Shown here one piece after another: positions 5,975 to 25,011 of a stretch of 33,298 nucleotides of DNA. Every line of letters starts with the position of its first letter. Position 1 is the first letter of the stretch. The notes below the pieces were generated by a model. The model was not told the DNA's origin. It saw nothing but the letters and a program-made list of their open reading frames with translations, and made no database searches. The DNA is taken from positions 1 through 33,298 of IMG/VR virus record IMGVR_UViG_3300030372_004742, one strand, 5' to 3'. This stretch comes from a virus. Lineage: Duplodnaviria; Caudoviricetes. The position numbers and the translations under genes are program-made.

Positions 5975-7372
5975 TTAGACGTCGAATCCGCACAGAATCG
6001 CGTTCTGGTTCGGGTTCGTGGTGACGGTGTTGTAGTACCATCGGTAGTAACCCTCGTAGGCGTCGACTCCCGCAACACCCACGCCAGCGCGCGCCAGGAC
6101 GCTTCCGTCCAGGTCCGCGAAGCCGTGAGCCTCGAGCTCCAGCACCTTCCAGGTCGAGAGCTTGAGGAAGATCATTCCTCCGCCCCCAACGTGACGGGCC
6201 GTCTTGATGGGAAGCCCACCATACGACAGTCCAGAGAATCCACCGTCGAGCTTGTTGGCGCGCTCTCCGCTGGTGTTCATCACCGCAGCGGAAGTGTTTG
6301 CCGTAAGCTGGAACAAGGCGGCGTACTGCTGACGCGCCAGCGGGCTGATGAGGATGCAGTCAGGCTCCTGACCGGAGAGCTGATGCACCTGGTCCATCGC
6401 CGCCTGCATACGCGGAAGCGCCAGCGCCGCACGGGCCTGAGCGCCACCCACGACCTGCGTGATGATGGTGCTCTGGAGAACGGGGAACTCCGTTCCACTC
6501 GCAGGGCTGAAGCGGTTGACGCCGAAGTGCGCACGAGAGCCGAGGTTCTCGAAGATTCCACGAGGCTGCTGGTCGAGAGCGTTGGTGACGGCAGTGGCCG
6601 GAGCCGCCTGCTGTGCAGCCGAAATCACAACCGCAACCGCAAACCCGTCGTCGGTGGGCGACGTGTCGTAGTTGGCACCTGCGCCGTTGAGGTCCACAAC
6701 CTCAAGGGTGATGGTGCGGTTGATGACATCCGTGGCGGTCAACTGAATCTGAACGCAGTTCGGAAGAACGGTGTATCCCAGAGCAGCGTTTCGGTCCACG
6801 CGAACGAGGTCGACCAGAAGCTCGGTGCTACCAGATGCGACAACGGCAGCGCGAAGAGCCTCGATCTTCTCGATGTCTCCGAAGCACTCCCAGGTGTCGA
6901 CAGCAGGAGCAGCACCAGCCGTAGCCTTGTGCTCGTTGAGGAAGCCGACGACGCGACCGCCAGAAATCATGGCGTTGTCCGAGGCCGACTTCACGTCGTT
7001 GACGAGCTTGTCCATCTCGGCTTCCATCCAGCCGATGAAGGAGTTTGCTCCGCCCTTACCAGCAGCCGACATGGCAGGGCCGGTAATCTGGAAACGACCG
7101 TAGAGGAAGTGCGCGTTCACCTGAAGCTGCTGGTATCCCTGGTCGCCAGCGGGCGGCAGGGTGGTCGCCGCAGTTCCATCGGACTCGCCACGGAAGCCGA
7201 CGCCCGTGTTGCGCGAAACGTGGATGGGGATGATTGCAACGCGACCGTTCCAATCGACAGTGGCCTTGGTCATCAGGTCAAGGACCATGACCTCATTGTT
7301 GAGCTGCTCTTGAACAGGCCCAAGGTAGAACTCCTTGAGAATGTTACTCAGCGTAAGCTGTGTGGCTGGCAT
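5975..7372 (-). CDS. Major capsid protein (HK97 fold)
   Basis: 465 aa after the scaffold, AGGAGG SD. ILKEFYLGPVQEQLNNE, LYGRFQITG and C-terminal YYRWYYNTVTTNPNQNAIL motifs. Confidence 0.85.
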   Translation of the reverse strand: MPATQLTLSNILKEFYLGPVQEQLNNEVMVLDLMTKATVDWNGRVAIIPIHVSRNTGVGFRGESDGTAATTLPPAGDQGYQQLQVNAHFLYGRFQITGPAMSAAGKGGANSFIGWMEAEMDKLVNDVKSASDNAMISGGRVVGFLNEHKATAGAAPAVDTWECFGDIEKIEALRAAVVASGSTELLVDLVRVDRNAALGYTVLPNCVQIQLTATDVINRTITLEVVDLNGAGANYDTSPTDDGFAVAVVISAAQQAAPATAVTNALDQQPRGIFENLGSRAHFGVNRFSPASGTEFPVLQSTIITQVVGGAQARAALALPRMQAAMDQVHQLSGQEPDCILISPLARQQYAALFQLTANTSAAVMNTSGERANKLDGGFSGLSYGGLPIKTARHVGGGGMIFLKLSTWKVLELEAHGFADLDGSVLARAGVGVAGVDAYEGYYRWYYNTVTTNPNQNAILCGFDV

Positions 7373-14091: not shown

Positions 14092-14931
14092 CTAAAGCCC
14101 GCACATTCCCTCGCACTCGCCATTCCACAGCGAGAACATCGTTTGCTGGCCACCATCGAAGTCCACCTCATCAATCGGAATCCGAGAGCGGTGGAGGAAC
14201 GGTTCGCTCTTAACCCCGAACGCGCCCTTGTCCCGCCAAGCCGAGCGGACCATGCGCTCAAAGGCAATAATGCGCTCGCGCTCTACAGGGTCGGCCATTA
14301 ACGCCTTCCACTCAGTGTTGTCGTGGAACGGGCAATAAGAACAGGCGCTCCTTGGCGTGACCATGCCCACAGAGTCCAGATACTCAATGCAGTGGGTGCG
14401 CTTCCAGCCCATCTCAATGAGCGGGTACCTGTTGAGCTTCCACGACTCCTTGGCAGGCTTCATGCGGCTGGACTCATCGACAGAGATGCCAATCCAGACC
14501 TCGACCTGTGGCTCCGCGTATCTCTTGCGCTTGATGCCAGCCCAGCCTCTGAGGAACTGGTTGATAGGCTGTAGCTTGAACTTCAGCGTGCAGCCCCGCG
14601 ACATAGGGGCTGACCGCCCCATTCCGTCCGCCACCCAGAACGGCGGTTCGGCGTGGTTGCTCTTTTTGCCAGCGTCCACTGCGATTCTCAGGTCCTCAGA
14701 CAAGGACGTGGCCCGCGACACCACCTCAAGCTGTGCCCCGTTCTCCTCGATAACCACCCGGCACTTCTCCAGGTGGTCGTACACAGCCACTGGCTCATCA
14801 CCGGTATCTGCGAACACGTACATCTCAGGGGGTTCGCCAACAACCGACAGCAGCCGCTCATCACGGGTCGCCGCTAGTAGGGCCAGCGTCGTGCTCTGCA
14901 CCCCGGCCCCGAAGCTCATGACCTTTTTCAT
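14092..14931 (-). CDS. PAPS-reductase-like adenine nucleotide alpha-hydrolase
   Basis: Likely start ATG 14931. PP-loop SFGAGVQST, FADTGDE, CTLKFK, WIGISVDESSR, YPL, SACSYCPF and C-terminal ECEGMC. Confidence 0.85.
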   Translation of the reverse strand: MKKVMSFGAGVQSTTLALLAATRDERLLSVVGEPPEMYVFADTGDEPVAVYDHLEKCRVVIEENGAQLEVVSRATSLSEDLRIAVDAGKKSNHAEPPFWVADGMGRSAPMSRGCTLKFKLQPINQFLRGWAGIKRKRYAEPQVEVWIGISVDESSRMKPAKESWKLNRYPLIEMGWKRTHCIEYLDSVGMVTPRSACSYCPFHDNTEWKALMADPVERERIIAFERMVRSAWRDKGAFGVKSEPFLHRSRIPIDEVDFDGGQQTMFSLWNGECEGMCGL

Positions 14932-14976
14932 CTCATCCCACCCTTTGGCACACGCATTGCTACGCGCGCTCGCTTG

Positions 14977-15103
14977 AAGTATAATACTTACTAGTACTCT
15001 CCCCAGACTGACCACTCCCCCCAAGGGAGTGGGCATGTCTGGGAGTGAGAGCGTCTCTCACCGCGCATGCGTACGCGCGCCTGGGGGGCGCGCTACGATG
15101 CGC
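14977..15103. other. Cluster of palindromes and three tandem hairpins
   Basis: aagtat-a-atactt 14977-14989, tactagta 14989-14996, hairpins at 15002-15043, 15045-15061 and 15063-15103. Confidence 0.7.
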
Positions 15104-15110
15104 TGAGTCC

Positions 15111-15362
15111 TCACCCATCTGCGGTCAGTCTGGCCAACGTGGTCCCCAGGGCAGTGGCTAGCTTACGCCACACCTCAAACGAACCAATCCTGTCCCCGTT
15201 CTCCAACCTCGAGATGTGAGAGGCACCAATACCGCTCGCATCAGATAGAGCCTGCTGAGACATACCCATCTTCAACCTACGCTTCATCAACCTCTGGCCT
15301 CGAGTCACAGCAGAAGACTGCTTCTCTTGCGATATCGGGCTCGTCAACTTGAGCTCACTCAT
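15111..15362 (-). CDS. XRE/Cro-CI family HTH regulator
   Basis: RRLKMGMSQQALSDASGIGASHISRLENGDRIGS...KLATALGTT; AGGAGGT SD. Confidence 0.92.
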   Translation of the reverse strand: MSELKLTSPISQEKQSSAVTRGQRLMKRRLKMGMSQQALSDASGIGASHISRLENGDRIGSFEVWRKLATALGTTLARLTADG

Positions 15363-15382
15363 GTGTCACCTCCTGGGAGAGG

Positions 15383-15411
15383 TTGATAGTACGGTACTGA
15401 CACGCTGTCAA
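15383..15411 (-). promoter_or_regulatory. Putative leftward promoter with overlapping palindrome
   Basis: TTGACA on the - strand (15411-15406) is half of TGACA-CGC-TGTCA. The -10 is uncertain: TACTAT at 14 nt or TATCAA at 17 nt. Confidence 0.5.
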
Positions 15412-15870
15412 GAGCAAATGGGTAAGGCTGGAAATTGGTGCGCGGAAAATGGGTCTAACCCCCGCGCCGACTCGGACCGAAACTTACTTCGCTCTGGCCC
15501 CGCTCGGTCCGGCCCTCTCCCCGTGCGCCCTTCCTCTCTGTACGCACCCCGCCCACACCCCGCCGTCCAGGGTGACTGCCAGTCAGGTGGTAGACCATCC
15601 CACGTTCTGAGCACATCCCACCCACTTGGCCCTGAACCGTGGTTCGGTACAGCGTTCAGCTCTACCACCCCGCCCCCGGGGGAGGGAGGGCCGGTCGGGA
15701 GGCGAGGGGAGGGAGGGAGGCCTGACCCACCGCACGCCAACACGCGAACACGGAAGACGCACACAACACACGGCCCGCATCACGCTCGTGCACGCGCACA
15801 GGGCTCTGCCCCGTGATCCCAGGCGCACGCGACGTCGCACGCATTACACGCGCACGTTGGAGCCCTCCAC

Positions 15871-15899
15871 TTGACACCCTGTCATGGGCATGGTCCTAT
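15871..15899 (+). promoter_or_regulatory. Putative rightward early promoter with overlapping palindrome
   Basis: TTGACA 15871-15876, 17 nt spacer, TG-n-TCCTAT. TGACA-CCC-TGTCA at 15872-15884. A hairpin begins about 7 nt downstream. Confidence 0.55.
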
Positions 15900-15954
15900 G
15901 GCTTCACCGTCGGGAACCCCCGAACGGTCAACAACCCACCCGGAGAACCGACCC

Positions 15955-16167
15955 ATGCAAAACCGAAACGCCAAGTTCGCCCTCAGCGCCGCTGCAAACG
16001 CTGTCGACAGGCTCGACCGAGTCAGCGCCCTTCGCCCCGATTGCGCCGCCACTATTGAGGCATTGGGAGCCGCCCTTACCGTCGCACATGAATGCGCCAA
16101 GGACTTGGGAGACCGAGACATGGAAGGCCACTACTCGGAGCGAATTTTCGAGATGATGTTCCGCTAG
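15955..16167 (+). CDS. Early hypothetical protein
   Basis: ATG 15955 after GGAG; 70 aa, helical. Confidence 0.65.
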   Translation: MQNRNAKFALSAAANAVDRLDRVSALRPDCAATIEALGAALTVAHECAKDLGDRDMEGHYSERIFEMMFR

Positions 16168-16255
16168 GCCTCGTGCTTCGCTTCGCACAGGGGAGCCCCT
16201 CTCCCCTGTGTCCAGCGCGACACGATGTCACGCCAACAACCAAAGGGGGGCCATC

Positions 16256-16552
16256 ATGGCCAGCAAGAGCACAAAGCAGGATATCAGTTTCGGAGACGTA
16301 GACGGCTTCTCATGCGCGGCTCCGTACCGTGGCAAGGGACCTGGCTTCCAATTGCACGCTTCGATTGATGATAGCGACGATGGGCATGGGTTCCCTGTGT
16401 ATCTGGACGCCACCGCCATCATAACAGGGCCCGACGCTAGCGCCTTCGTAGACGCAATCCAGGCGCACGGAACCGAGATCTACCGCCTGCGCCGCGAGAT
16501 TGACCGGCTCAAGAGCGTGGCCAATCAAGCTCGTGCCCTACTTGGCGACTAG
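16256..16552 (+). CDS. Early hypothetical protein
   Basis: ATG 16256 after AAAGGGGGG; its stop abuts the ribozyme. Confidence 0.7.
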   Translation: MASKSTKQDISFGDVDGFSCAAPYRGKGPGFQLHASIDDSDDGHGFPVYLDATAIITGPDASAFVDAIQAHGTEIYRLRREIDRLKSVANQARALLGD

Positions 16553-16612
16553 TCGAAACGTCCAACGGGACGTCTGAGGGAGATAGCCTACCCGTACTGA
16601 AGAGACAGGCTA
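16552..16612 (+). ncRNA. Type II hammerhead ribozyme with pseudoknot
   Basis: Stem II guc/gac; GAAA 16555-16558; stem III cgucc-aacg-ggacg; GUC cleavage triplet 16572-16574; stem I ugaggg/cccgua; CUGAAGA 16597-16603; loop uagccu pairs with 3' aggcua. Confidence 0.92.
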
Positions 16613-16648
16613 AACAACCCAACAACCCAGCAAACAAGCGAGAGAATC

Positions 16649-16894
16649 ATGCGATACCCGATTGCGCCCGGACCACACACACGGGACAAGCTCGTTGCCT
16701 ATCTGAACAGGCTACAGAGCACCATCACCTTCCAGCTTGCCCAGATTACCGTCGCGTTGCGAGACGAGCGCGAGGGCCTGTTCGGGCCCAATGGACAGTG
16801 GGAGCACATCGAACGCTACGTCGCCGACCAAGGCGAACTAATGCGAGAGCTTGCCGACGTCAGAGCCGAGATTCGGCGCGTGGAGGGCTGCTAG
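16649..16894 (+). CDS. Early hypothetical coiled-coil protein
   Basis: 81 aa ORF after the ribozyme and a CA-rich leader. Confidence 0.7.
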   Translation: MRYPIAPGPHTRDKLVAYLNRLQSTITFQLAQITVALRDEREGLFGPNGQWEHIERYVADQGELMRELADVRAEIRRVEGC

Positions 16895-16895
16895 C

Positions 16896-17801
16896 ATGAA
16901 CGCACTAACGACCACACTCACGCGCACCATGGCAGTCGTCGACGCCTACCGCGTGCGAATTCGCAACGGTGAGCGATTCACCATGTCAACCCAATGCGCC
17001 ATGGTGCGCGAGGGTCGAAACCTTGACGCGGTAGCTATCCAGGCTGCGCTCATCCTAGAAGGCAAGCGCGGGGTCTTGACGACGAGACAGACGAAGCTCG
17101 ACAAGGCACAAGCAGAGACCACGGGATTCATCAACCGAGGCCTCACCTTGGCCACGTCTCGCGAGGCGTCGCCGTTCATCGGGTCCGCGTTTGATGCCTG
17201 CATCGGAGCGACCGATGCGTGTCGTCTGGCGTGCGTCGGGTCGCGTACGGGTCAAGGTCGATTGCCTAGCAGCGCAATCGCTCGCATTGGGCGCACCATC
17301 GCGCTGCACGTCGACCCGGTGACGTTCTGGGCCCGTTACGACCGCGAAGTCGAGCGAGAGCAGCGCCGCGCCGAGCGCAAGGGGTACAAACTCGCTATGC
17401 GCTGCAACGTGGCCAGCGACCATGCGCACGTTGCCGCGCGTTCTGCTGCGACACATCCAGACGTGACGCACTACGATTACACAGCCATTACGGCCAACGT
17501 GCGGCGCGTGGATGGTGTGCGCCGCGTCTACTCGCTCAAGGATGGCGCACAGCGTCGCATGCTCGCGAAGCGCATGCTCGATGAGGGTCACGGGGTCGCT
17601 GTGGTGTTCGCTGCTAGCGCACGACGAAAAGAGCCACTGCCAGCCACCTGGAATGGCGCGCCAGTCATTGACGGTGACTTGCATGACCTTTGGTTCCTGC
17701 AAGCACCTGAGTCGGGTCCGTTTGTGGTCGGCCTTCGTGTGAAGGGCGACAGCGGCCAAGTGCAAGCGGCTATCGATGCCGGGTTCGCAGTCGCTGCATA
17801 G
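16896..17801 (+). CDS. GP88-family protein
   Basis: Start ATG 16896 after GGAGG. C-x6-C-x3-C (CIGATDACRLAC), RCNVASD, HYDYT, VAVVF, LPATWNGAPVIDGDLHD, VVGLRVKG. Confidence 0.85.
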   Translation: MNALTTTLTRTMAVVDAYRVRIRNGERFTMSTQCAMVREGRNLDAVAIQAALILEGKRGVLTTRQTKLDKAQAETTGFINRGLTLATSREASPFIGSAFDACIGATDACRLACVGSRTGQGRLPSSAIARIGRTIALHVDPVTFWARYDREVEREQRRAERKGYKLAMRCNVASDHAHVAARSAATHPDVTHYDYTAITANVRRVDGVRRVYSLKDGAQRRMLAKRMLDEGHGVAVVFAASARRKEPLPATWNGAPVIDGDLHDLWFLQAPESGPFVVGLRVKGDSGQVQAAIDAGFAVAA

Positions 17802-17895
17802 CTCGCACACCGGGCGCGCGTCGGAGCTTCGGCTCTGGCGCGTCACCGGGACCGTGAGTTCCGAAACCAGTAACCACATAGGAGCCCAGAAAATG
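17800..17895 (+). repeat. Structured intergenic element, copy 1
   Basis: ctcgc-aca-ccgg...gcgtcggagc-ttcg-gctctggcgc...ccgg-gacc-gtgag followed by gaaaccagtaacca-x-a-x-agga. Confidence 0.85.
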
Positions 17896-18114
17896 AGCAG
17901 CGATATCCTTTACTTCAACTGCGACAACATCCCACACACCGAGACGGGCGCTACTATGGCGCGCATGTTCAACAGCCGAGACGCGGCTATCAAATACGCC
18001 GAACTATCGCGCCAATACATTGACAATACCGAGCGCATCAAGACGAGCAAGCGTACCGTTCGGGTTGAAGGTGCGACGCTGACCGTCTGGGTTGTGACCT
18101 GGCGAAAGCGATAG
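17893..18114 (+). CDS. Early hypothetical protein
   Basis: ATG 17893 after AGGAG; flanked by the two repeat copies. Confidence 0.7.
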   Translation: MSSDILYFNCDNIPHTETGATMARMFNSRDAAIKYAELSRQYIDNTERIKTSKRTVRVEGATLTVWVVTWRKR

Positions 18115-18212
18115 GACTCGCGCACCAGGGATGCGCCGGAGCCTTCACGGGTTCCGGCCTGACCTGGGACCGTGAGCCAGAAACCAGTAACCAAACAGGA
18201 ACCAAGACGATG
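18114..18212 (+). repeat. Structured intergenic element, copy 2
   Basis: ctcgc-gca-ccagg...gccggagcc-ttcacg-ggttccggc...cctgg-gacc-gtgag followed by gaaaccagtaacca-x-a-x-agga. Confidence 0.85.
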
Positions 18213-18515
18213 AAAATCCGAGACCTCACACACCTAATCGAGACTCTTCGCCAGGTATTCGACCACACGAGCGAGCCCTTCGAGATGACCGTCTATCACC
18301 TGGCCCCAGGCGTCACGCTTCAACGGGTCCAGAACAAAGACCTGGCATGGGAGCACCTGAACCCACAGTGCCGAGACGACTGGCAGATATGCGACCGCAC
18401 AGAGCCAGGGGTTGTGCGACGAGTCACCGTGCGAACGTCCACAGGCGAGGCCACGCTAGACACCGTCCTTGCGCAGGCCTTCAAGGCCAGCCCAGACCCA
18501 CAGAACACCCTCTAG
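18210..18515 (+). CDS. Early hypothetical protein
   Basis: 101 aa, AGGA SD inside repeat copy 2. Confidence 0.7.
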   Translation: MKIRDLTHLIETLRQVFDHTSEPFEMTVYHLAPGVTLQRVQNKDLAWEHLNPQCRDDWQICDRTEPGVVRRVTVRTSTGEATLDTVLAQAFKASPDPQNTL

Positions 18516-18595
18516 AACGCATCCTACGCCCTGAAGGCAGGGCATCCTACCAACCAACCAAGCAAAGGCCCGTACGCGGGCAGGGAGGCAGCAAG

Positions 18596-18841
18596 ATGAG
18601 CAGAACGCGGCGATACGTGAGCGAGAGCGAGGTGCGCCAGGTCGCGGACACGGTTTGCAGGTCATGCGACTTCGTGCACCGAGGCGACACGGCGAGACTG
18701 CGGGAGATTGCCCGCGATGAGTTCCGAGAGATGGGCATCGAGCCCACACCCAGCCAGGTGGGCTACGCGGTCAAGTTGGGCCGCGCATCCTACGGCGGGG
18801 TCATCCGGTCCACTAAGGCCGCAATCTACGGGGGGCGATGA
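18596..18841 (+). CDS. Early hypothetical protein
   Basis: ATG 18596 after GGGAGG. Confidence 0.65.
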   Translation: MSRTRRYVSESEVRQVADTVCRSCDFVHRGDTARLREIARDEFREMGIEPTPSQVGYAVKLGRASYGGVIRSTKAAIYGGR

Positions 18842-19056
18842 TGGCTAGGCTAAGCACAGACCGTGAGATTCTTCGCGAGCGCATCTCATGGGCAATCTAC
18901 AAGGCGACCGGGGCGAAGACGCTTATCACCACGCTAGACGCGATTATGGACGCCGTGTGTGGTCCAGAGGAGGCGCGTTGCGAGCACTCCGCGTGCAGTC
19001 AGAACTACATCGACACCGGTGACACCGCGTGCATCAAAGGGGGCAACGATGAGTAG
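18838..19056 (+). CDS. Early hypothetical protein with Cys/His cluster
   Basis: ATGA overlap with the upstream gene; CEHSAC...C may bind metal. Confidence 0.6.
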   Translation: MMARLSTDREILRERISWAIYKATGAKTLITTLDAIMDAVCGPEEARCEHSACSQNYIDTGDTACIKGGNDE

Positions 19057-19333
19057 CAACGACCTGGCACCATTGGGCTGCGTCTTCGATGGCGACAACA
19101 TACAGCGCGACGACGACGTAGCACCGGACAGCTTCAACGACATCGACGCCGTGGCTTTTTGCCTAAGCTACAAAGGGGACGTGTCTGACCTTGGAGCCAA
19201 GGACCGCAAGCACCTGTATGGGTGCGCCATTGCCACCCTGGTGGCTTGCGTGGGCTACGGGGACGATTCGCCCCACGCTCAGCAGCTCGCGTGGGACTTT
19301 CTCAATGGCCTAGAGGGGGCCGACAATGGATAG
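19049..19333 (+). CDS. Early acidic hypothetical protein
   Basis: ATG 19049 after AAGGGGG, coupled to both neighbours. Confidence 0.65.
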   Translation: MSSNDLAPLGCVFDGDNIQRDDDVAPDSFNDIDAVAFCLSYKGDVSDLGAKDRKHLYGCAIATLVACVGYGDDSPHAQQLAWDFLNGLEGADNG

Positions 19334-19529
19334 CCTCATCACAGCCCTAGCCCTGGCCCTGGCTCTGCTCTTCACGAGCAGCGGCCCTGGCCCGGTGGGC
19401 ATCATCGACCACGGGGAGGATGGGGTCTGGGCTCTGGAGTGCGTGTACCCCGACAGCATAGAGCTAATCTACATCACGGGAGACTACCGCGAGGGCGAGC
19501 GCGTGCCCTGCCCTGTCGATTTCCCTTGA
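19326..19529 (+). CDS. Small exported/membrane protein, weakly DUF3006-like
   Basis: Hydrophobic N-terminus LITALALALALLF; IIDHGEDGVWALE...REGERV. Confidence 0.55.
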   Translation: MDSLITALALALALLFTSSGPGPVGIIDHGEDGVWALECVYPDSIELIYITGDYREGERVPCPVDFP

Positions 19530-19553
19530 CACCATCTGACAACCTGGCAGAAT
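19526..19553 (+). promoter_or_regulatory. Putative second early promoter
   Basis: TTGACA 19526-19531, 16 nt spacer, TG-n-CAGAAT. Near-palindrome TGACA-ACC-TGGCA at 19537-19549. Followed by hairpin agagcg/cgctct and a CA-rich leader. Confidence 0.55.
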
Positions 19554-19613
19554 CCGTAATCACAGAGCGGTACAACGCTCTCAACCACTGACCAACCAAC
19601 CAGGAGAATTATT

Positions 19614-19814
19614 GTGGAGAATTCCACCACACCTTCACCGTCTAAGACGGTTCGACTCGCGGCTAAGATGCTGCGCACCCTGCACGCCATGACCAAGGCA
19701 GGCTGCTCGCCCTCCCAGATGGGAGAGGCGATGGGCTACGCCGCGTGCGTCGTTGCGCTGCTCACCCCTGACGAGTGGCGCGCTGCTGTCGCGCTCGCTG
19801 AAGGGGGCGAGTGA
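19614..19814 (+). CDS. Hypothetical protein
   Basis: GTG start after AGGAGA. Confidence 0.65.
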   Translation: MENSTTPSPSKTVRLAAKMLRTLHAMTKAGCSPSQMGEAMGYAACVVALLTPDEWRAAVALAEGGE

Positions 19815-20059
19815 TGCTTGGCAAGTGTGATCACAAACGAGTAGCAGAGACCGTGCTACACCGTGGCGCACGAGGCACCAGCCGCGTGTGCGTGGACGCT
19901 GACGGTGACGGGTTCAGGGTCTACGACACCTGCGACGAGAACCTGACGGAGCCCGGTGCCTCGTGGGACGAGCGCCTGGACACCCTACAGGAAGCCATGA
20001 ACAGCATGATGGTGTGCGCGTACAGCGTGCTTCACTGGGACTCCCTGGGAGGTGAGTGA
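19811..20059 (+). CDS. Hypothetical protein
   Basis: GTGA overlaps at both ends. Confidence 0.6.
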   Translation: MMLGKCDHKRVAETVLHRGARGTSRVCVDADGDGFRVYDTCDENLTEPGASWDERLDTLQEAMNSMMVCAYSVLHWDSLGGE

Positions 20060-20337
20060 TGATTAGCAAGCGTCAATGGCAACGCTGCATGGCGAAGGCC
20101 AAGAACGGCAAGACCCTGCGTGAGTCCATCAACGAGGAGCTCCAGTCCACGGACAAGACCATCAATGATTGCGGGGTGCAGTCTCTGTACGCCACGCGCA
20201 TCGATGGCACCTGGACCGTGTGCATCAACGGCACCTGGACCAGCGGCGGGTACGACGGGCTCTCTGACATCATCAGCATGATTGCCCGCACGCCTATCGC
20301 CTGGGACGAGGAGTACGACCCCAGGAAGGACGGATGA
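20056..20337 (+). CDS. Hypothetical protein
   Basis: GGAGGT SD, coupled ORF. Confidence 0.65.
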   Translation: MMISKRQWQRCMAKAKNGKTLRESINEELQSTDKTINDCGVQSLYATRIDGTWTVCINGTWTSGGYDGLSDIISMIARTPIAWDEEYDPRKDG

Positions 20338-20603
20338 GTAAGAAGGAAGAGCGAGACAAGTCTAACGCCTGCATGGACGCTATGTACGAGCAGGTTGAGG
20401 ACATGAAGTCAGCCGAGGATGCCCTCGACTACCTCATCTGGCTCGCGCTCAACGTCGTAGACAGCGAGCCCAAATGGAAAGAGCCGTGCCTCACACGGGT
20501 CTACGCAAGGGTTTTCTACAGGTTCCACAACCAGGCCTGGGATGACCACCGAGCAAACATCAGCTTCAACAGAAACATCGAACCGAAGGACTCTAAGTCA
20601 TGA
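20334..20603 (+). CDS. Hypothetical protein
   Basis: ATGA overlaps at both ends. Confidence 0.65.
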   Translation: MSKKEERDKSNACMDAMYEQVEDMKSAEDALDYLIWLALNVVDSEPKWKEPCLTRVYARVFYRFHNQAWDDHRANISFNRNIEPKDSKS

Positions 20604-21289
20604 GCATTAGCATCACCACTACCAAAAACTTTGGAACCTCGAGCCTCACAGCCCTCGTGCACGGCCCACCAGGGGCGGGCAAGACCTACGCCGCGCGCAC
20701 CTGTCCCGGCAAGACCCTCGTGGTCAGCGCCGAGGCTGGGCTGCTCTCGCTTCGAGACGTGGACCTGGACGTGGCTACTATCTCCACGTTCTCTGACCTC
20801 AAGCGCGTTTACTTCCTGCTCAACGACGAGGGCCAGCCTTACGAGTGGGTGTACATCGACTCGCTCTCTGAGGTGGCAGAGGTCTGCCTAGCTGAGGAGA
20901 TGGGCAAGACCGCGCACGGCGTGAAGGCTTACGGAGAGATGATGACTGCGGTCATGCGCCTGGTCAAAGCGTTCCGCGACCTGGACGTGAACGTCGTCTT
21001 CACTGCCAAGCAGGGCCGAGACGTGGACCCTGATGGCGTGGCCTACATGGCCCCGGAGCTGCCAGGGAAGAAGCTCAGCACCAAGCTGCCCTACGAGTTC
21101 GACTTGATTGTCGCAGCCGGCACACACACGGACTCCGATGGCAACGTCCATCGGGTGTTCCGTACCACTTCTGGTCAAGGCGTCCTCGCCAAAGACCGGT
21201 CCGGGGCACTCGCCCCACTTGAGCGCCCCAACTGGGGCCGAATTCACAGCAAGATTTCCAACTCAACCACCAATCAAACAGGAGAATAA
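20600..21289 (+). CDS. Sak4-like AAA_24 ATPase (single-strand annealing recombinase)
   Basis: Walker A HGPPGAGKT, SAEAGLLSL, Walker B VYIDSLSE, FRDLDVNVVFTA, AKDRSG; adjacent to the SSB. Confidence 0.88.
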   Translation: MSISITTTKNFGTSSLTALVHGPPGAGKTYAARTCPGKTLVVSAEAGLLSLRDVDLDVATISTFSDLKRVYFLLNDEGQPYEWVYIDSLSEVAEVCLAEEMGKTAHGVKAYGEMMTAVMRLVKAFRDLDVNVVFTAKQGRDVDPDGVAYMAPELPGKKLSTKLPYEFDLIVAAGTHTDSDGNVHRVFRTTSGQGVLAKDRSGALAPLERPNWGRIHSKISNSTTNQTGE

Positions 21290-21290
21290 G

Positions 21291-21767
21291 GTGGCAAGCA
21301 TTAACTTCAACAGCGCAGATGTTCCGCAGGACGACAGCAAAAAGTCCTTCGACCCACTGCCCTCGGGCTGGTACGTCGGGCACATCGTCGAGAGTGAACT
21401 CAAGCAGAACGCCAAGGGGACGGGCAGCTACTTGCAGTTCGTCATCGAGGTGGACACTCCGTCTCACGCTGGCCGTATGCTTTGGGCACGTCACACCTGG
21501 GAGCACCACTCCTCGCCCATCGCGGTCGAGATTGGCCACCGCCAGGTGGCGGCTCTGTGCAACGCCTGCGGTCGCCCGAACATCTCGGACACCGAGGAGC
21601 TTCACGGCACGCAGTTCCGGGTGAAGGTCAAGGAGACCCACCACGAGAAGTACGGCCCCGGCAATGACGTGGTCGACTACGGGCCGGTCAAGGGCGGTGC
21701 GTCGGTGGCTCCGACTCCCGCTGCCGCCCCGGTGTCTGTCGACAACGACGACGACATCCCCTTTTAG
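21291..21767 (+). CDS. DUF669-type single-stranded DNA-binding protein
   Basis: GTG 21291 after AGGAGA; FDPLPSGWY...GTGSYLQF...AGRMLW; acidic SSB tail DDDIPF. Confidence 0.85.
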   Translation: MASINFNSADVPQDDSKKSFDPLPSGWYVGHIVESELKQNAKGTGSYLQFVIEVDTPSHAGRMLWARHTWEHHSSPIAVEIGHRQVAALCNACGRPNISDTEELHGTQFRVKVKETHHEKYGPGNDVVDYGPVKGGASVAPTPAAAPVSVDNDDDIPF

Positions 21768-21822
21768 CCAGAACCACACCCCCACCCCCCTTAAGGGGGT
21801 GGTGGGGTGTGTGTGGTCTTGG
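21768..21822. other. Long imperfect GC-rich inverted repeat after the SSB gene
   Basis: Core ccaccccc-cttaa-gggggtgg at 21782-21802, extended by ccacac/gtgtgg arms; no U-tract. Confidence 0.65.
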
Positions 21823-21831
21823 AGGTCAGTG

Positions 21832-22263
21832 ATGGCGAACTTCATGAACTATTACGATATGCAGCAGCAGCGGCATGACATCGAGCCCGGTCACTACATT
21901 GTCGATGACGTTCACGCGTATCGGACCAGGCCCAACCGAGCCTGCATCGAGGTCACGGTTAATGAGCTCTCCGTCTACCCAGGGTTCTATTGGCGAACCC
22001 CAAGGCTCTACGCACCGCATGAGCCCCTGGTCGATGCGCTCTGGGGATTCGTCAACAGAGACAATCCAAAGGTCAAACGAGGAAGCCTCACCACCAAAGA
22101 CGCATGGGTGGTGGAGCTTGGCAAGAACGGCAAGGTGCTTGGGTTCGCACGCGCCACTGTGGTGTATGGCCTTGGTATGATGCCCTGGGTGCCACGAGGC
22201 GAGCTTCAGGACTACGACGTGTACACCGTCGAGGAGATGCGCCGTAAGGGGCACAGGTATTGA
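21832..22263 (+). CDS. Hypothetical protein
   Basis: Likely start at 21832 (or GTG 21829) after GGAGGT. Confidence 0.65.
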   Translation: MANFMNYYDMQQQRHDIEPGHYIVDDVHAYRTRPNRACIEVTVNELSVYPGFYWRTPRLYAPHEPLVDALWGFVNRDNPKVKRGSLTTKDAWVVELGKNGKVLGFARATVVYGLGMMPWVPRGELQDYDVYTVEEMRRKGHRY

Positions 22264-22478
22264 GCCGGCCTGGTGTCATCATGGACAGGGTGCTCGCTGA
22301 GCTTTACGCACAGGCCCCTGTCGGCCTCACTGTGCTAGAGATAGCGGCTGCAACGGGTGAGAGGCCCAACTCCATATGGAAATCCCTTAGAGCCCTGATT
22401 ACGGAGGGCTGGGTCACGAGACACAAGGGACCGTCACGCATAGGGCGTCGGCGGTTCATCTACCGGGTGGTTGAGTAA
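22260..22478 (+). CDS. Winged-helix DNA-binding protein
   Basis: GLTVLEIAAATGERPNSIWKSLRALITEGWVTR...RRRFIY. Confidence 0.75.
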   Translation: MSRPGVIMDRVLAELYAQAPVGLTVLEIAAATGERPNSIWKSLRALITEGWVTRHKGPSRIGRRRFIYRVVE

Positions 22479-22667
22479 GTGGACGAGCTTGTCGAAATAA
22501 CCCAAGAGATGATGGAGAGCCTTGAGGCGCTAGCCAAGTGGCGAGGCACGTCTGCTCAGGCTGCGCTTCGCATGGCTATAGACGACTGCGTTGCACGCAT
22601 GCACCAGGGCTTGGAGATGCAGGCTAGGCTGGAGAAGGAACACGAGGACCGCTACGGTCCCAGGTAG
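22479..22667 (+). CDS. Possible ribbon-helix-helix protein
   Basis: VEITQEMMESLEALAKWRGTSAQAALRMAI fits the CopG-like pattern. Confidence 0.5.
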   Translation: MDELVEITQEMMESLEALAKWRGTSAQAALRMAIDDCVARMHQGLEMQARLEKEHEDRYGPR

Positions 22668-23047
22668 TGCAGGGCCGCAACGCCAGCGGCTCCGGTCAGA
22701 ACAACACCAGCGGCAAACCACACAGCGGGGTGCTCGTACCAGCCAGGAGGGGGCACCGGGTCAGCCACGAACTCACGGAGTTTGCGCTCCAGGGCCTCGG
22801 CTCTGCGCTTCTGGATGGCCTCTCGCTCACGAAGGGCTGTCTCGGTGACGGCTGCTCGCTTGCGTGTGGCCTCGAGCCCTGCCTCGCAGGACTTGATGTC
22901 CACATCTAGGCACCGCAGCGCCTTCTTAGCAGAGGACTCGCTGACCAGGAGCCCGTCGCATGGAGCGGGTGTGCTGGTGAGCAGCGTGTGGGCCTTGGTG
23001 CAAGGGGCAGAGGTCAGCAGGGCTGCGATGAGCAGGACGGTGGTCAC
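22652..23047 (-). CDS. Exported protein with C-terminal TM helix, spanin-like
   Basis: Signal-like N-terminus, Cys residues, coiled coil, C-terminal WYEHPAVWFAAGVVLTGAAGVAAL. Confidence 0.55.
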   Translation of the reverse strand: MTTVLLIAALLTSAPCTKAHTLLTSTPAPCDGLLVSESSAKKALRCLDVDIKSCEAGLEATRKRAAVTETALREREAIQKRRAEALERKLREFVADPVPPPGWYEHPAVWFAAGVVLTGAAGVAALHYLGP

Positions 23048-23244
23048 GCGCTGCGCGAGCGTCCCGCTGCGGCCATCGCTGCCATCTTGCGCGCGCCGTA
23101 CTTCTTACGTCCGATGTGTGCAGCCAGGGCGTCAGGGTCTTTGACTCCCTTGGCCTTGAGCTTGCTGGACAGGTCCTTAAACCGGTCTCCGCTGCCCAGT
23201 GCTGCCTTGGCTGCGTCGCCTCGTGCTTTCTTCTTACCGTACAT
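23044..23244 (-). CDS. Small basic phage protein
   Basis: AGGAGG SD; RFKDLSSKLKAKGVKDPDALAAHIGRKKYG. Confidence 0.7.
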   Translation of the reverse strand: MYGKKKARGDAAKAALGSGDRFKDLSSKLKAKGVKDPDALAAHIGRKKYGARKMAAMAAAGRSRSA

Positions 23245-23253
23245 GGTGGCCTC

Positions 23254-23562
23254 CTATGCCTTCGTTCGTTTGTGCCCACCTGGCCCAGCCCACAGGGCCT
23301 TGCATGCCCAGTACCTGGCGGTCAGCTTGCTGTTGGCCGTGTCGCAGTTGTGTCGCGCCTTGAAGTTCTTACGCGCACCGGCTGAGTAGTTGTGCTTGTA
23401 GCCCTTGGCCCCGAAGCGAATGAGCTTGGTCTTGTCCCCTTCCTTGGCCATCACCACGGCTTTCTTCTTGGGGTGACCAGGGGTGAGCTTCCACTTATTG
23501 AAGCCCTTGAGCCCCAACTTCTTCATCATGCGCCGTGCGGCTTCTTGCCTTGGGTTGGCCAT
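23254..23562 (-). CDS. Conserved basic phage protein of unknown function
   Basis: KLIRFGAKG...ARKNFKARHNC...KLTARYWACKALW, a motif pattern common in aquatic viruses. Confidence 0.75.
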   Translation of the reverse strand: MANPRQEAARRMMKKLGLKGFNKWKLTPGHPKKKAVVMAKEGDKTKLIRFGAKGYKHNYSAGARKNFKARHNCDTANSKLTARYWACKALWAGPGGHKRTKA

Positions 23563-23873
23563 TACTCGCCCCCCGTGGCCTTGTCCCAGGCCGTAGCCAG
23601 GGAGCCGTCTTCTAGGTTGACCGCTGAGATAGCCTTGGCCGTCTCTGCTAGCTCGGCTCGGAGCACCTTGTGTGCTTCGTCCACCTTCTTGAGCTCCTCT
23701 TCCTGTTTGCTCACCGACTCAGACAGAGACTCAGCCACCTCTGTGGCCTGGGCTGCGATGACCTCAAGGGTGCTGGTCTGCTGCTCAAGCACCTTGGTCT
23801 TGCGCGCGCTCGTGCGCCACAGGGCAAAGAACATGGCTGATGCGCTGACCAGTACGGCGATGAGCCAGTCCAC
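23562..23873 (-). CDS. N-anchored coiled-coil protein, i-spanin-like
   Basis: N-terminal TM helix then heptad-rich helix; directly downstream of the holin-like gene. Confidence 0.55.
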   Translation of the reverse strand: MDWLIAVLVSASAMFFALWRTSARKTKVLEQQTSTLEVIAAQATEVAESLSESVSKQEEELKKVDEAHKVLRAELAETAKAISAVNLEDGSLATAWDKATGGE

Positions 23874-24193
23874 TAGAAGTCCTCTGCGATGTCTGCTGAC
23901 TTCTTCACGCGAGACTTCACGGCAGAGAAGACGTAGGTGGTTAAAGACCCGGCTCCGATGCCGATGATGGCACCGAAGCCGGTATACCCAGCGAGGATAT
24001 ATCCGAAACTCCCTCCCAGGATTACGGACAGGGCTCGCAAGGACGTGCGCCTGAACCTGGTATCAGACAGCACGCTCTCTTTGAGTAGCGTCTTGAATAC
24101 CTGAGTGATGGAGTAACTGGCAAGGGCTGCGATGGAGATAATAATCGTCAGCCTGTCCCAGCTAATCGTCTCGATGGTCAGCGACTCGCTCAT
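23873..24193 (-). CDS. Holin-like membrane protein (paralog of 11663-12076)
   Basis: Start ATG 24193 (ATGA overlap); three hydrophobic segments and a basic tail. Confidence 0.6.
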   Translation of the reverse strand: MSESLTIETISWDRLTIIISIAALASYSITQVFKTLLKESVLSDTRFRRTSLRALSVILGGSFGYILAGYTGFGAIIGIGAGSLTTYVFSAVKSRVKKSADIAEDF

Positions 24194-24432
24194 TGGTTGG
24201 CCTCCACTCTGGTCAGCCTGTCGCCATGACCGTGAAGCTCCTGCCACAGGTCACGCCTCGAGTCCTTGGCTGACTTGACCTCGCGCTGGATGTTGGCCAG
24301 GCGCTCTTCAATCACAGCCAGGTGAGCGTCAATCTTAGACACGCCCGCCTGGAGCTTGGACGCAAACACCCAAACGCTTGCAGCCATAGAGGCCGCGTAC
24401 CCACCGACCTGCACTAGGGCGTCGACCTCCAT
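24190..24432 (-). CDS. TM plus coiled-coil protein, lysis-associated
   Basis: Start ATG 24432; hydrophobic N-terminus, IEERLANIQ...HGDRLTRVE. Confidence 0.6.
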   Translation of the reverse strand: MEVDALVQVGGYAASMAASVWVFASKLQAGVSKIDAHLAVIEERLANIQREVKSAKDSRRDLWQELHGHGDRLTRVEANQ

Positions 24433-24433
24433 C

Positions 24434-24805
24434 TTAGAAGTAGACAGCCACGGCGCACACACCAGCGCACTGGTAGAGCAGCGGGTCAGCCGGCGTGCCA
24501 GAGAAGCCGAGCAGCATCGAGGTGCCAGCAGCAATCTTGATTCCAATACCAGCGCCGCCCTGGGCAGTCCCTCCAATAATAATGTCGTTGCCGCTTGATG
24601 CCGAGATGACAATCGACTTGAACATGGACGGATAGGTGCGGGCAGGCGTGGTCAGGGGGCCTAGCAACGCAATCTGGTCCTGAATAGCGGTAACGAGATT
24701 AGCGCCTGCCCCGCCTGCGGTGGCCAGGTGAACGATGCAGAAGTCTTCTGTGACGACCGGGAAGGAGACGCTCTCGCGCTGTACTTTTCCGACAGGTGTG
24801 CTCAT
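24434..24805 (-). CDS. Hypothetical beta-rich virion protein
   Basis: Start ATG 24805 after GAGGAG; SIVISASSGNDIIIGG...GIKIAAGTS. Confidence 0.55.
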   Translation of the reverse strand: MSTPVGKVQRESVSFPVVTEDFCIVHLATAGGAGANLVTAIQDQIALLGPLTTPARTYPSMFKSIVISASSGNDIIIGGTAQGGAGIGIKIAAGTSMLLGFSGTPADPLLYQCAGVCAVAVYF

Positions 24806-25011
24806 GGTGTTGGCTCCTCTTGCCATGCTGAGGTTTGAACTAGGGCGAGTGCTGCGGCGTGGTCAATCCACCCGTCGACTGGCTCGGTAAATTTGAGGAT
24901 GGCCTGGGTGCCATCCAGCGTGTAGCGGGGCTCGGTGGTGACGCAGGTGGAGCTCTCCATGTGGGAGGCCACCTCGTCAGCAAGGTATACTCTGTAGTGC
25001 AGGTTGTTCAT
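24802..25011 (-). CDS. Small protein coupled to the LamG gene, possible fibre chaperone
   Basis: RYTLDGTQAILKF...HAAALALVQTSAW; ATGA overlap with the LamG gene. Confidence 0.55.
   Translation of the reverse strand: MNNLHYRVYLADEVASHMESSTCVTTEPRYTLDGTQAILKFTEPVDGWIDHAAALALVQTSAWQEEPTP

Follow-up and report, generated by a model that had tools for sequence, protein, structure and literature searches.

In the rightward early region (15900-19615) of the virus record IMGVR_UViG_3300030372_004742, analysed here over its full 33,298 nucleotides (nt; hereafter the window), gaps between small genes are occupied by a type II hammerhead and by three long hairpins, E1, E2 and E3, and in related phages a hairpin of the E1 type takes the position that the hammerhead has in the window, before the same linker, Shine-Dalgarno sequence (SD) and start codon. 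With moderate confidence, we propose that two interchangeable devices at stop codons, the hammerhead and E1-E3, the latter as sites for the ribonuclease III (RNase III) of the host, would divide this early operon into messages of one or two genes.

Interchange of hairpin and hammerhead

The similarity between the window and the relative L151 (L numbers denote loci of other viral contigs) sets in at 16612, where the hammerhead ends, and covers linker, SD and ATG (43 nt, 88%; L151:37-79), and L152:679-712 likewise matches 16612-16645. The element upstream of this shared stretch is, in both relatives, an E1-type hairpin, complete in L152 and cut by the contig end in L151. Comparison of syntenic gaps, a check that a first-pass annotation of the region had named beforehand, finds a hairpin standing in the place of the hammerhead in these two loci. 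An E1-type hairpin also precedes the gene for GP88 in L152 and L003, where the window has the hammerhead, an open reading frame (ORF) of 81 amino acids (aa) and GP88. Type II hammerheads and long hairpins occur together in post-stop gaps of L150, L167 and L168, and L005 combines long hairpins with a type I hammerhead (read by eye, no Rfam hit); the examined stretches of L003, L006 and L152 hold hairpins only, and in L004 and L007 neither device was clearly seen. Hammerheads and hairpins with a common downstream linker or SD were also found in the unrelated loci L073 and L071. Within L073:1658-2460 there are three identical internal-loop hairpins, with a linker common to the hammerhead, and one partial tandem duplication. 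Judged from these sequences, the swap between hammerhead and long hairpin before the same linker and SD is real, and the swapped devices probably do the same job, the splitting of one long message.

The hammerhead, which the first-pass annotation had placed at 16552-16612, is real, being of type II with an intact core and a homolog above the Rfam cut-off. Its order is stem II 5' strand, GAAA, stem III, GUC, stem I, CUGAAGA, stem II 3' strand and tail. Stem II (16552-16554/16604-16606) has 3 base pairs (bp) and is open, GAAA lies at 16555-16558, stem III (6 bp) at 16558-16573, GUC at 16572-16574 and CUGAAGA at 16597-16603; in stem I (16575-16596) five of six pairs are formed, with an A.G mismatch at the third pair and no mispair beside the core. 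Every core base of the Perreault consensus (C3 U4 G5 A6 N7 G8 A9, G12 A13 A14 A15, U16 H17), taken from the methods of PMC3088659, is present, and self-cleavage is predicted from the sequence to occur after C16574. Loop I and the 3' tail can form a pseudoknot of 6 bp (16584-16589/16607-16612, UAGCCU/AGGCUA), which reads GGCCU/AGGCC in L150. The L150 homolog lies between different genes, has 89% identity over 63 nt, reaches 44.3 bits with RF02276 (cut-off 37) and differs from the window by compensatory changes in stem III and in the pseudoknot. The A.G mismatch is also present in L149, which is 100% identical, and is therefore no sequencing slip.

A search of viral contigs with a type II pattern listed at least 128 stretches (~550 estimated). 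Among 134 distinct hammerhead matches stem III pairs in 129, and a stop triplet adjoins stem II in 106, a frame-blind count that was not used as evidence. Rfam, run on 20 of the 128 loci, gave 38 hits, in which overlapping loci are counted twice; all are Hammerhead_II, and no other ribozyme class was found in these loci. Three to six or more type II hammerheads stand in successive gaps within a few kb in L031/L034, L084 and L062.

Type II hammerheads between phage genes are known biology: clustered copies cleave prophage polycistrons in vitro, and transcript processing was proposed as their function (Perreault et al., 2011, PMC3088659). The role of self-cleaving ribozymes between small phage genes has been described as unresolved (PMC6765202). 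Hammerhead punctuation and the RNase III sites of phage T7 are known separately, and what the present sequences would add is their interchange; a literature search, with most subscription journals outside it, returned no paper on such interchange, and the word 'RNase' is absent from the main text of PMC3088659. The window and L151/L152, as a hairpin-for-hammerhead pair before one linker, constitute a natural experiment for the punctuation idea. If hammerhead and hairpin yield equivalent processed messages, ribozymes would be a host-independent punctuation of mRNA, and the function of bacterial and phage hammerheads would be the task of RNase III in T7, done without the host enzyme. More tentatively, we suggest that phage early operons may have a general punctuation slot at the stop codon, filled by a ribozyme or by a protein-cut hairpin, with the fillers travelling as the ends of gene cassettes; the pattern recurs in other phages, so that the locus would be a clean example and not a unique system. 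As a filter in ribozyme discovery, simple hairpins with an 11-12-bp apex in ribozyme slots are probably protein substrates.

Long hairpins E1-E3 as candidate RNase III sites

E1-E3 constitute one covarying hairpin family of 23-24 bp, with an apical helix of ~11-12 bp above small internal loops of variable bases, with common ends and with homologs in L003, L151, L152 and L154. None of 300 shuffles was as stable as the bare elements. The two covariation sets are small and made of related sequences. In the E1 group (n=4) 97.7% of cells are paired and 6 of 22 pairs are compensatory, five of them in the apical helix, where pairing reaches 100% of cells, and the covariation score lies above 500 of 500 shuffles. 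In the E2/E3 group (n=6) 98.4% are paired, with double changes in 3 of 21 pairs and further G.U exchanges, and 8 of 500 shuffles scored as high. The apical stem is the part least conserved in sequence, its pairing being kept. An E1 pattern search of viral contigs gave 11 stretches, among which only the two copies of L003 are real, and a covariance model of the hairpins (R1) found no member beyond close relatives, its strong hits being its own training sequences. Rfam, run on the window and eight loci, has no family for E1-E3, for the leader hairpins or for the module at 18490 described below. The sub-threshold Rfam matches in these sequences were judged to be due to chance.

The early polycistron of T7 is split into messages by RNase III. 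When the T7 early gaps were folded likewise, five of six gave apical helices, of 9, 9, 9, 10 and 13 bp; we take these five to be the sites R0.3-R1.3, which the T7 record does not mark. The minimal substrate for RNase III from E. coli has an 11-bp helix between cut and loop, a typical one has two helical turns (PMC1540722), and an internal loop makes the enzyme cut a single strand (PMC1540722, PMC3867540). E1-E3 agree with the length rule of two turns and at least 11 bp from cut to loop (23-24 bp in total; apical 11, 12 and 10+1 bp), and their pairing covaries. In a survey of shape, 18 post-stop hairpins were picked by eye from the window and eight relatives, including sequences unrelated to E1-E3 in L150, L005, L006, L167 and L168 and omitting three near-identical E2 copies, a weak 14-bp hairpin of L005 and the bulged family of 21768. 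In 13 of them the uninterrupted apical helix measures 11-14 bp, and in 10 it lies within 11-12 bp; the total length is 19-26 bp in all, and a G.U pair stands at the foot of the apical helix in seven. A second survey covered 80 of the 128 unrelated hammerhead loci and 178 gaps (85 hammerhead-like, 93 other); at a threshold chosen after the data had been seen, an apical helix of at least 9 bp occurs in 9 of the 93 non-hammerhead gaps, which come from five loci, and in 2 of 465 shuffles (p 3e-6).

We propose a mechanism in which a polycistron would start at the promoter at 15872. RNase III would gauge the length of the 11-12-bp apical helix and make its cut where that helix ends, close to the first internal loop (~16184/16213, 17816/17845 and 18133/18161), and the loop would often limit the cut to one strand, a protective 3' hairpin being left on the upstream message. 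After cleavage of the hammerhead, stem III would stay with the upstream piece, and the downstream piece would carry a 5'-OH end. The CA-rich linker would leave the next SD accessible, and the shared ends of the elements probably serve as crossover points for the swapping of genes as well.

Several observations weigh against this mechanism, besides the choice by eye in the first survey and the late threshold and few loci in the second, where a looser definition of the long hairpin showed no enrichment (24 of 93 gaps, 107 of 465 shuffles). The canonical E. coli distal box (U-A, U-G beside the loop) is present in none of the 18 hairpins, and A-U or U-A at position 2 of the proximal box in 6 of 15, in a register inferred from the numbering of PMC1540722 that agrees with the T7 1-1.1 hairpin. 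E1 agrees with this proximal-box preference, its pair at position 9 being A-U and that at position 11 G.U; E2 and E3, with G-C pairs there, do not. The distal box sequence possibly varies with phylogeny (PMC1540722); since the B. subtilis enzyme has the same box preferences as that of E. coli (10.1101/2023.03.12.532304), the mismatch is not easily blamed on a difference of host. The AAGG/CCUU or CAGG/CCUG base of the T7 hairpins is absent from E1-E3, and the E1-type copies fold equally well or better on the minus strand (4/4). For the ribozyme, the window copy is not listed by RF02276, probably because of the mismatch in stem I. In shape E1-E3 thus resemble RNase III sites, and they are putative members of that class.

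In a rather unlikely alternative, E1-E3 would remain uncut and act as 3'-protective stem-loops or U-less attenuators, with an RNase E/Y-type cut in the CA-rich linker or exonuclease stalling; the result would still be single-gene punctuation equal to that of the hammerhead. Intergenic stem-loops act as decay barriers, and very stable GC-rich stems directly behind stops, an unstructured linker after every element and the general lack of RNase III boxes are as expected for such a role. A barrier, however, could do without a stem of 20-26 bp in which an apical helix of 11-12 bp recurs above an internal loop, and in 14500-25000 the plus strand yielded no U-tract terminator, so that E1-E3 are not intrinsic terminators.

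The first-pass annotation had seen in the substitutes of the hammerhead candidates for self-cleaving RNAs, which is unsupported by the structures. E1-E3 occupy the slot of the hammerhead and lack an Rfam match, twister sister, pistol and hatchet were found in such intergenic regions (PMC5737381, PMC6765202), and the 18490 module has conserved unpaired bases, but it seems highly improbable that the hairpins or the module are unrecognised ribozymes replacing the hammerhead. E1-E3 are unbranched, and homologs have different bases in the internal and terminal loops, so that nothing points to a catalytic core; neither a conserved core nor a conserved pseudoknot partner was seen. In 73 unrelated hammerhead loci the hairpin model also failed to find a member (best E 0.15), and conservation of the module may reflect recent shared descent. 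Nuclease recruitment, by RNase III, appears to be the better reading of the substitutes. A comparison with consensus features, made by eye, led to the rejection of twister, pistol, twister sister, HDV-like and hairpin ribozymes, as well as of N4-type hairpin promoters and the k-turn, tandem GA/GA occurring only in E3-type loops.

Similarity between the window and its relatives starts or stops at 16612, 17798, 18165 and 18486-18498; blocks start at 18486-18498 in six relatives, similarity to L150 and L160 begins at 18165-18166, within the 3' arm of E3, and E2/E3 hybrid copies are present in L152 and L154. The boundaries at elements and the hybrids make it likely that the shared ends are also crossover points. 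In L001:2946-3350 the E3 3' arm and linker lie in frame in a longer ORF, fused to a homolog of window 18210-18515, an apparent recombination scar that would have removed the hairpin. These boundaries and hybrids, together with a Sak4-like annealing protein encoded nearby, would also suit E1-E3 that are mainly cassette junctions at the DNA level, where repeat homology or single-stranded DNA (ssDNA) hairpins of the attC or PeSL kind serve the swapping of small genes and the RNA fold is secondary; RNA and ssDNA hairpins are hard to separate computationally (PMC5737381). We consider this improbable. No integrase was found among the 30 proteins scanned (in a record ~90% complete) and no attC R''/R' core boxes were seen by eye; the apical stem keeps its pairing despite being least conserved in sequence, and interchange with an RNA enzyme speaks for RNA. 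The UNCG loops and plus-strand G.U pairs of the E2 type point in the same direction, with E2 at -39.6 kcal/mol on the plus strand vs -26.1 on the minus strand and the plus strand more stable in 16 of 21 hairpins.

Layout of the early region and its setting

Seven gaps longer than 60 nt occur in 15900-19615 (the leader before ATG 15955, 16168-16255, 16553-16648, 17802-17892, 18115-18209, 18516-18595 and 19530-19613), and the remaining gene junctions overlap or have 1 nt. The seven folds and the CA-rich linkers before start codons that the first-pass annotation described are all there, each linker (79-93% C+A) standing after a fold. The seven elements are nevertheless four different kinds of thing, and the claim that every gap has the same layout fails: the 15906 and 19564 hairpins lie behind promoters and not after stops, and 18528 belongs to a short double hairpin. 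The first two are called transcript leaders because both follow TTGACA promoter-like sites. Folding was scored in context (element plus flanks against shuffles) and on the bare element; in context it exceeds shuffles only for 16160-16260 (z -2.3), 17795-17897 (-3.0) and 18108-18213 (-3.9), the other four gaps having z of -0.5 to -1.4. That internal elements start near the upstream stop is true of E1-E3, whose starts lie within 1-2 nt of the stop codon's first base, and not of the 18528 hairpin, 13 nt after the stop; a clear SD is present at 4-5 of 7 starts and is weak after the hammerhead (GAGAG) and after E1 (AAGGGGG). The idea of a mixed processing system in one slot finds support in four of the seven elements; as far as the present evidence goes, 18528 and both leader hairpins lie outside the cleavage slot. 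All seven precede a CA-rich stretch and a start codon, but with two of them behind promoters, one a short double hairpin, and weak or no covariation in these, a single kind of processing slot throughout is very unlikely. The 19564 stem has no compensatory pair, and one inner pair is broken in two of six sequences.

The ~100-nt module at 18490-18598 is conserved in eight sequences behind different upstream genes, which end inside it, and supplies their last codons and stop. Its first hairpin has 6 bp (z -0.6 in context); the second, missed in the first-pass annotation, comes after the linker and directly before the SD. Each contains one compensatory pair, and a pattern search of viral contigs gave four matches, three of which are known relatives.

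Features of the early region are listed in the table. The window is the whole of a 33.3-kb virus record, estimated to be ~90% complete, and a family scan of 30 proteins identified portal, terminase, capsid, DnaB, the Sak4-like annealing protein and a helix-turn-helix (HTH) repressor-like gene. The early region sits behind this divergent HTH gene (15111-15362, minus), and among its ten ORFs scanned only GP88 has a family match. The palindrome TGACA-N3-TGTCA occurs twice between HTH gene and early operon, the second copy at 15398-15410, and overlaps the -35 of both divergent promoters; it also occurs at L003:260, L152:237, L004:972 and before the L149 early region, a different motif taking its place in L001/L150, and the paired palindromes are likely an operator pair. 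In the distant phage L156-L159 (e.g. L157:5560-5630, 6003-6099), a near-perfect palindrome of 15-17 bp with a 5-nt centre, a constant linker and an SD precede several small genes; it contains a promoter-like arrangement, TTGCAA-17-TAAGCT, and may be a promoter/operator cassette.

Table. Positions of the features of the early region in the window.
Feature	Position	Strand	Remarks
Promoter-like site TTGACA, 17 nt, TCCTAT	15872-15900	+	Seen by eye; absent from promoter-scan list
Palindrome TGACA-N3-TGTCA overlapping promoter -35	15872-15884		Likely operator of divergent HTH gene
Short 5'-leader hairpin	15906-15928	+	z -1.4 in context, -2.45 bare; L003 and L152 leaders differ in sequence
70-aa ORF	15955-16167	+	No family match
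Long hairpin E1	16167-16229	+	Apical helix 11 bp (16185-16211), 2x2 loop, 4 bp, 3x3 loop, lower stem; predicted RNase III site
98-aa ORF	16256-16552	+	TAG overlaps hammerhead stem II; no family match
Type II hammerhead	16551-16612	+	Core, stems and pseudoknot in sequence; covariation
CA-rich linker, SD and ATG	16612-16651	+	Common to relatives with long hairpin instead of hammerhead
81-aa ORF, then GP88 gene (16896-17801)	16649-17801	+	GP88: PF17338 E 1.3e-18, phrog_1617
Long hairpin E2	17800-17860	+	12-bp apical helix (17816-17843), C(UUCG)G loop, 2x2 loop, 4 bp, 3x4 loop, 6-7 bp; predicted RNase III site
73-aa ORF	17893-18114	+	No family match
Long hairpin E3, E2 paralog	18114-18178	+	Apical 10 bp + bulge + 1, 3x3 loop, 5 bp, loop, 6 bp; predicted RNase III site
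101-aa ORF	18210-18515	+	Last codons and stop inside junction module
Conserved junction module	18490-18598	+	Two short hairpins (18528-18543, 18568-18581), CA linker, SD
Second promoter-like site TTGACA-16-CAGAAT with TG	19526-19553	+	10/12 matches in promoter scan; conserved in 6 sequences
Short 5'-leader hairpin of second transcript	19564-19581	+	z -1.1 in context
Further long post-stop hairpin after ssDNA-binding gene	21768-21816	+	Beyond range of first-pass annotation; bulged, geometry unlike E1-E3

The hairpin at 21768-21816 is purine/pyrimidine-skewed and is kept, with changes, in four relatives (L160-L163). Four scans of genome contigs, made in search of the host, gave no relatives; DnaB matches in annotated phages have at most 29% identity among the 10 matches listed, and a scan for tRNA and tmRNA found none. 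A phosphoadenosine phosphosulfate reductase-like ORF (phrog_424; 14092-15036, minus) adjoins DnaB, and a perfect 13-bp palindrome with a 3-nt centre lies near the left end (2179-2207).

Comparison with known systems

PeSL cassettes belong to T4-type phages. The early region resembles integron attC and PeSL cassettes in having a structured repeat after each stop, different genes between the repeats in relatives and mosaic boundaries, and differs from them in that no integrase and no attC core boxes were found and no promoter lies inside E1-E3. The hammerhead agrees with those of RF02276 and PMC3088659 in its type II permutation, intact core, short stem II, loop I-tail pseudoknot and site between small phage genes; unlike the clustered prophage hammerheads, it is a single copy, its stem I contains an A.G mismatch, Rfam gives no match for it, and its neighbouring slots hold hairpins. 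With the RNase III signals of T7, of which R1.1 is a model substrate (PMC1540722, PMC3867540), E1-E3 have in common a position close behind stops, an intergenic hairpin of about two turns, an internal loop topped by an apical helix of roughly one turn, and an open SD downstream. In contrast to the T7 signals, E1-E3 are GC-rich and carry neither the AAGG/CCUU base nor a canonical distal box, and here the promoters are of the host sigma70 type and the hairpins appear to be interchangeable with a ribozyme.

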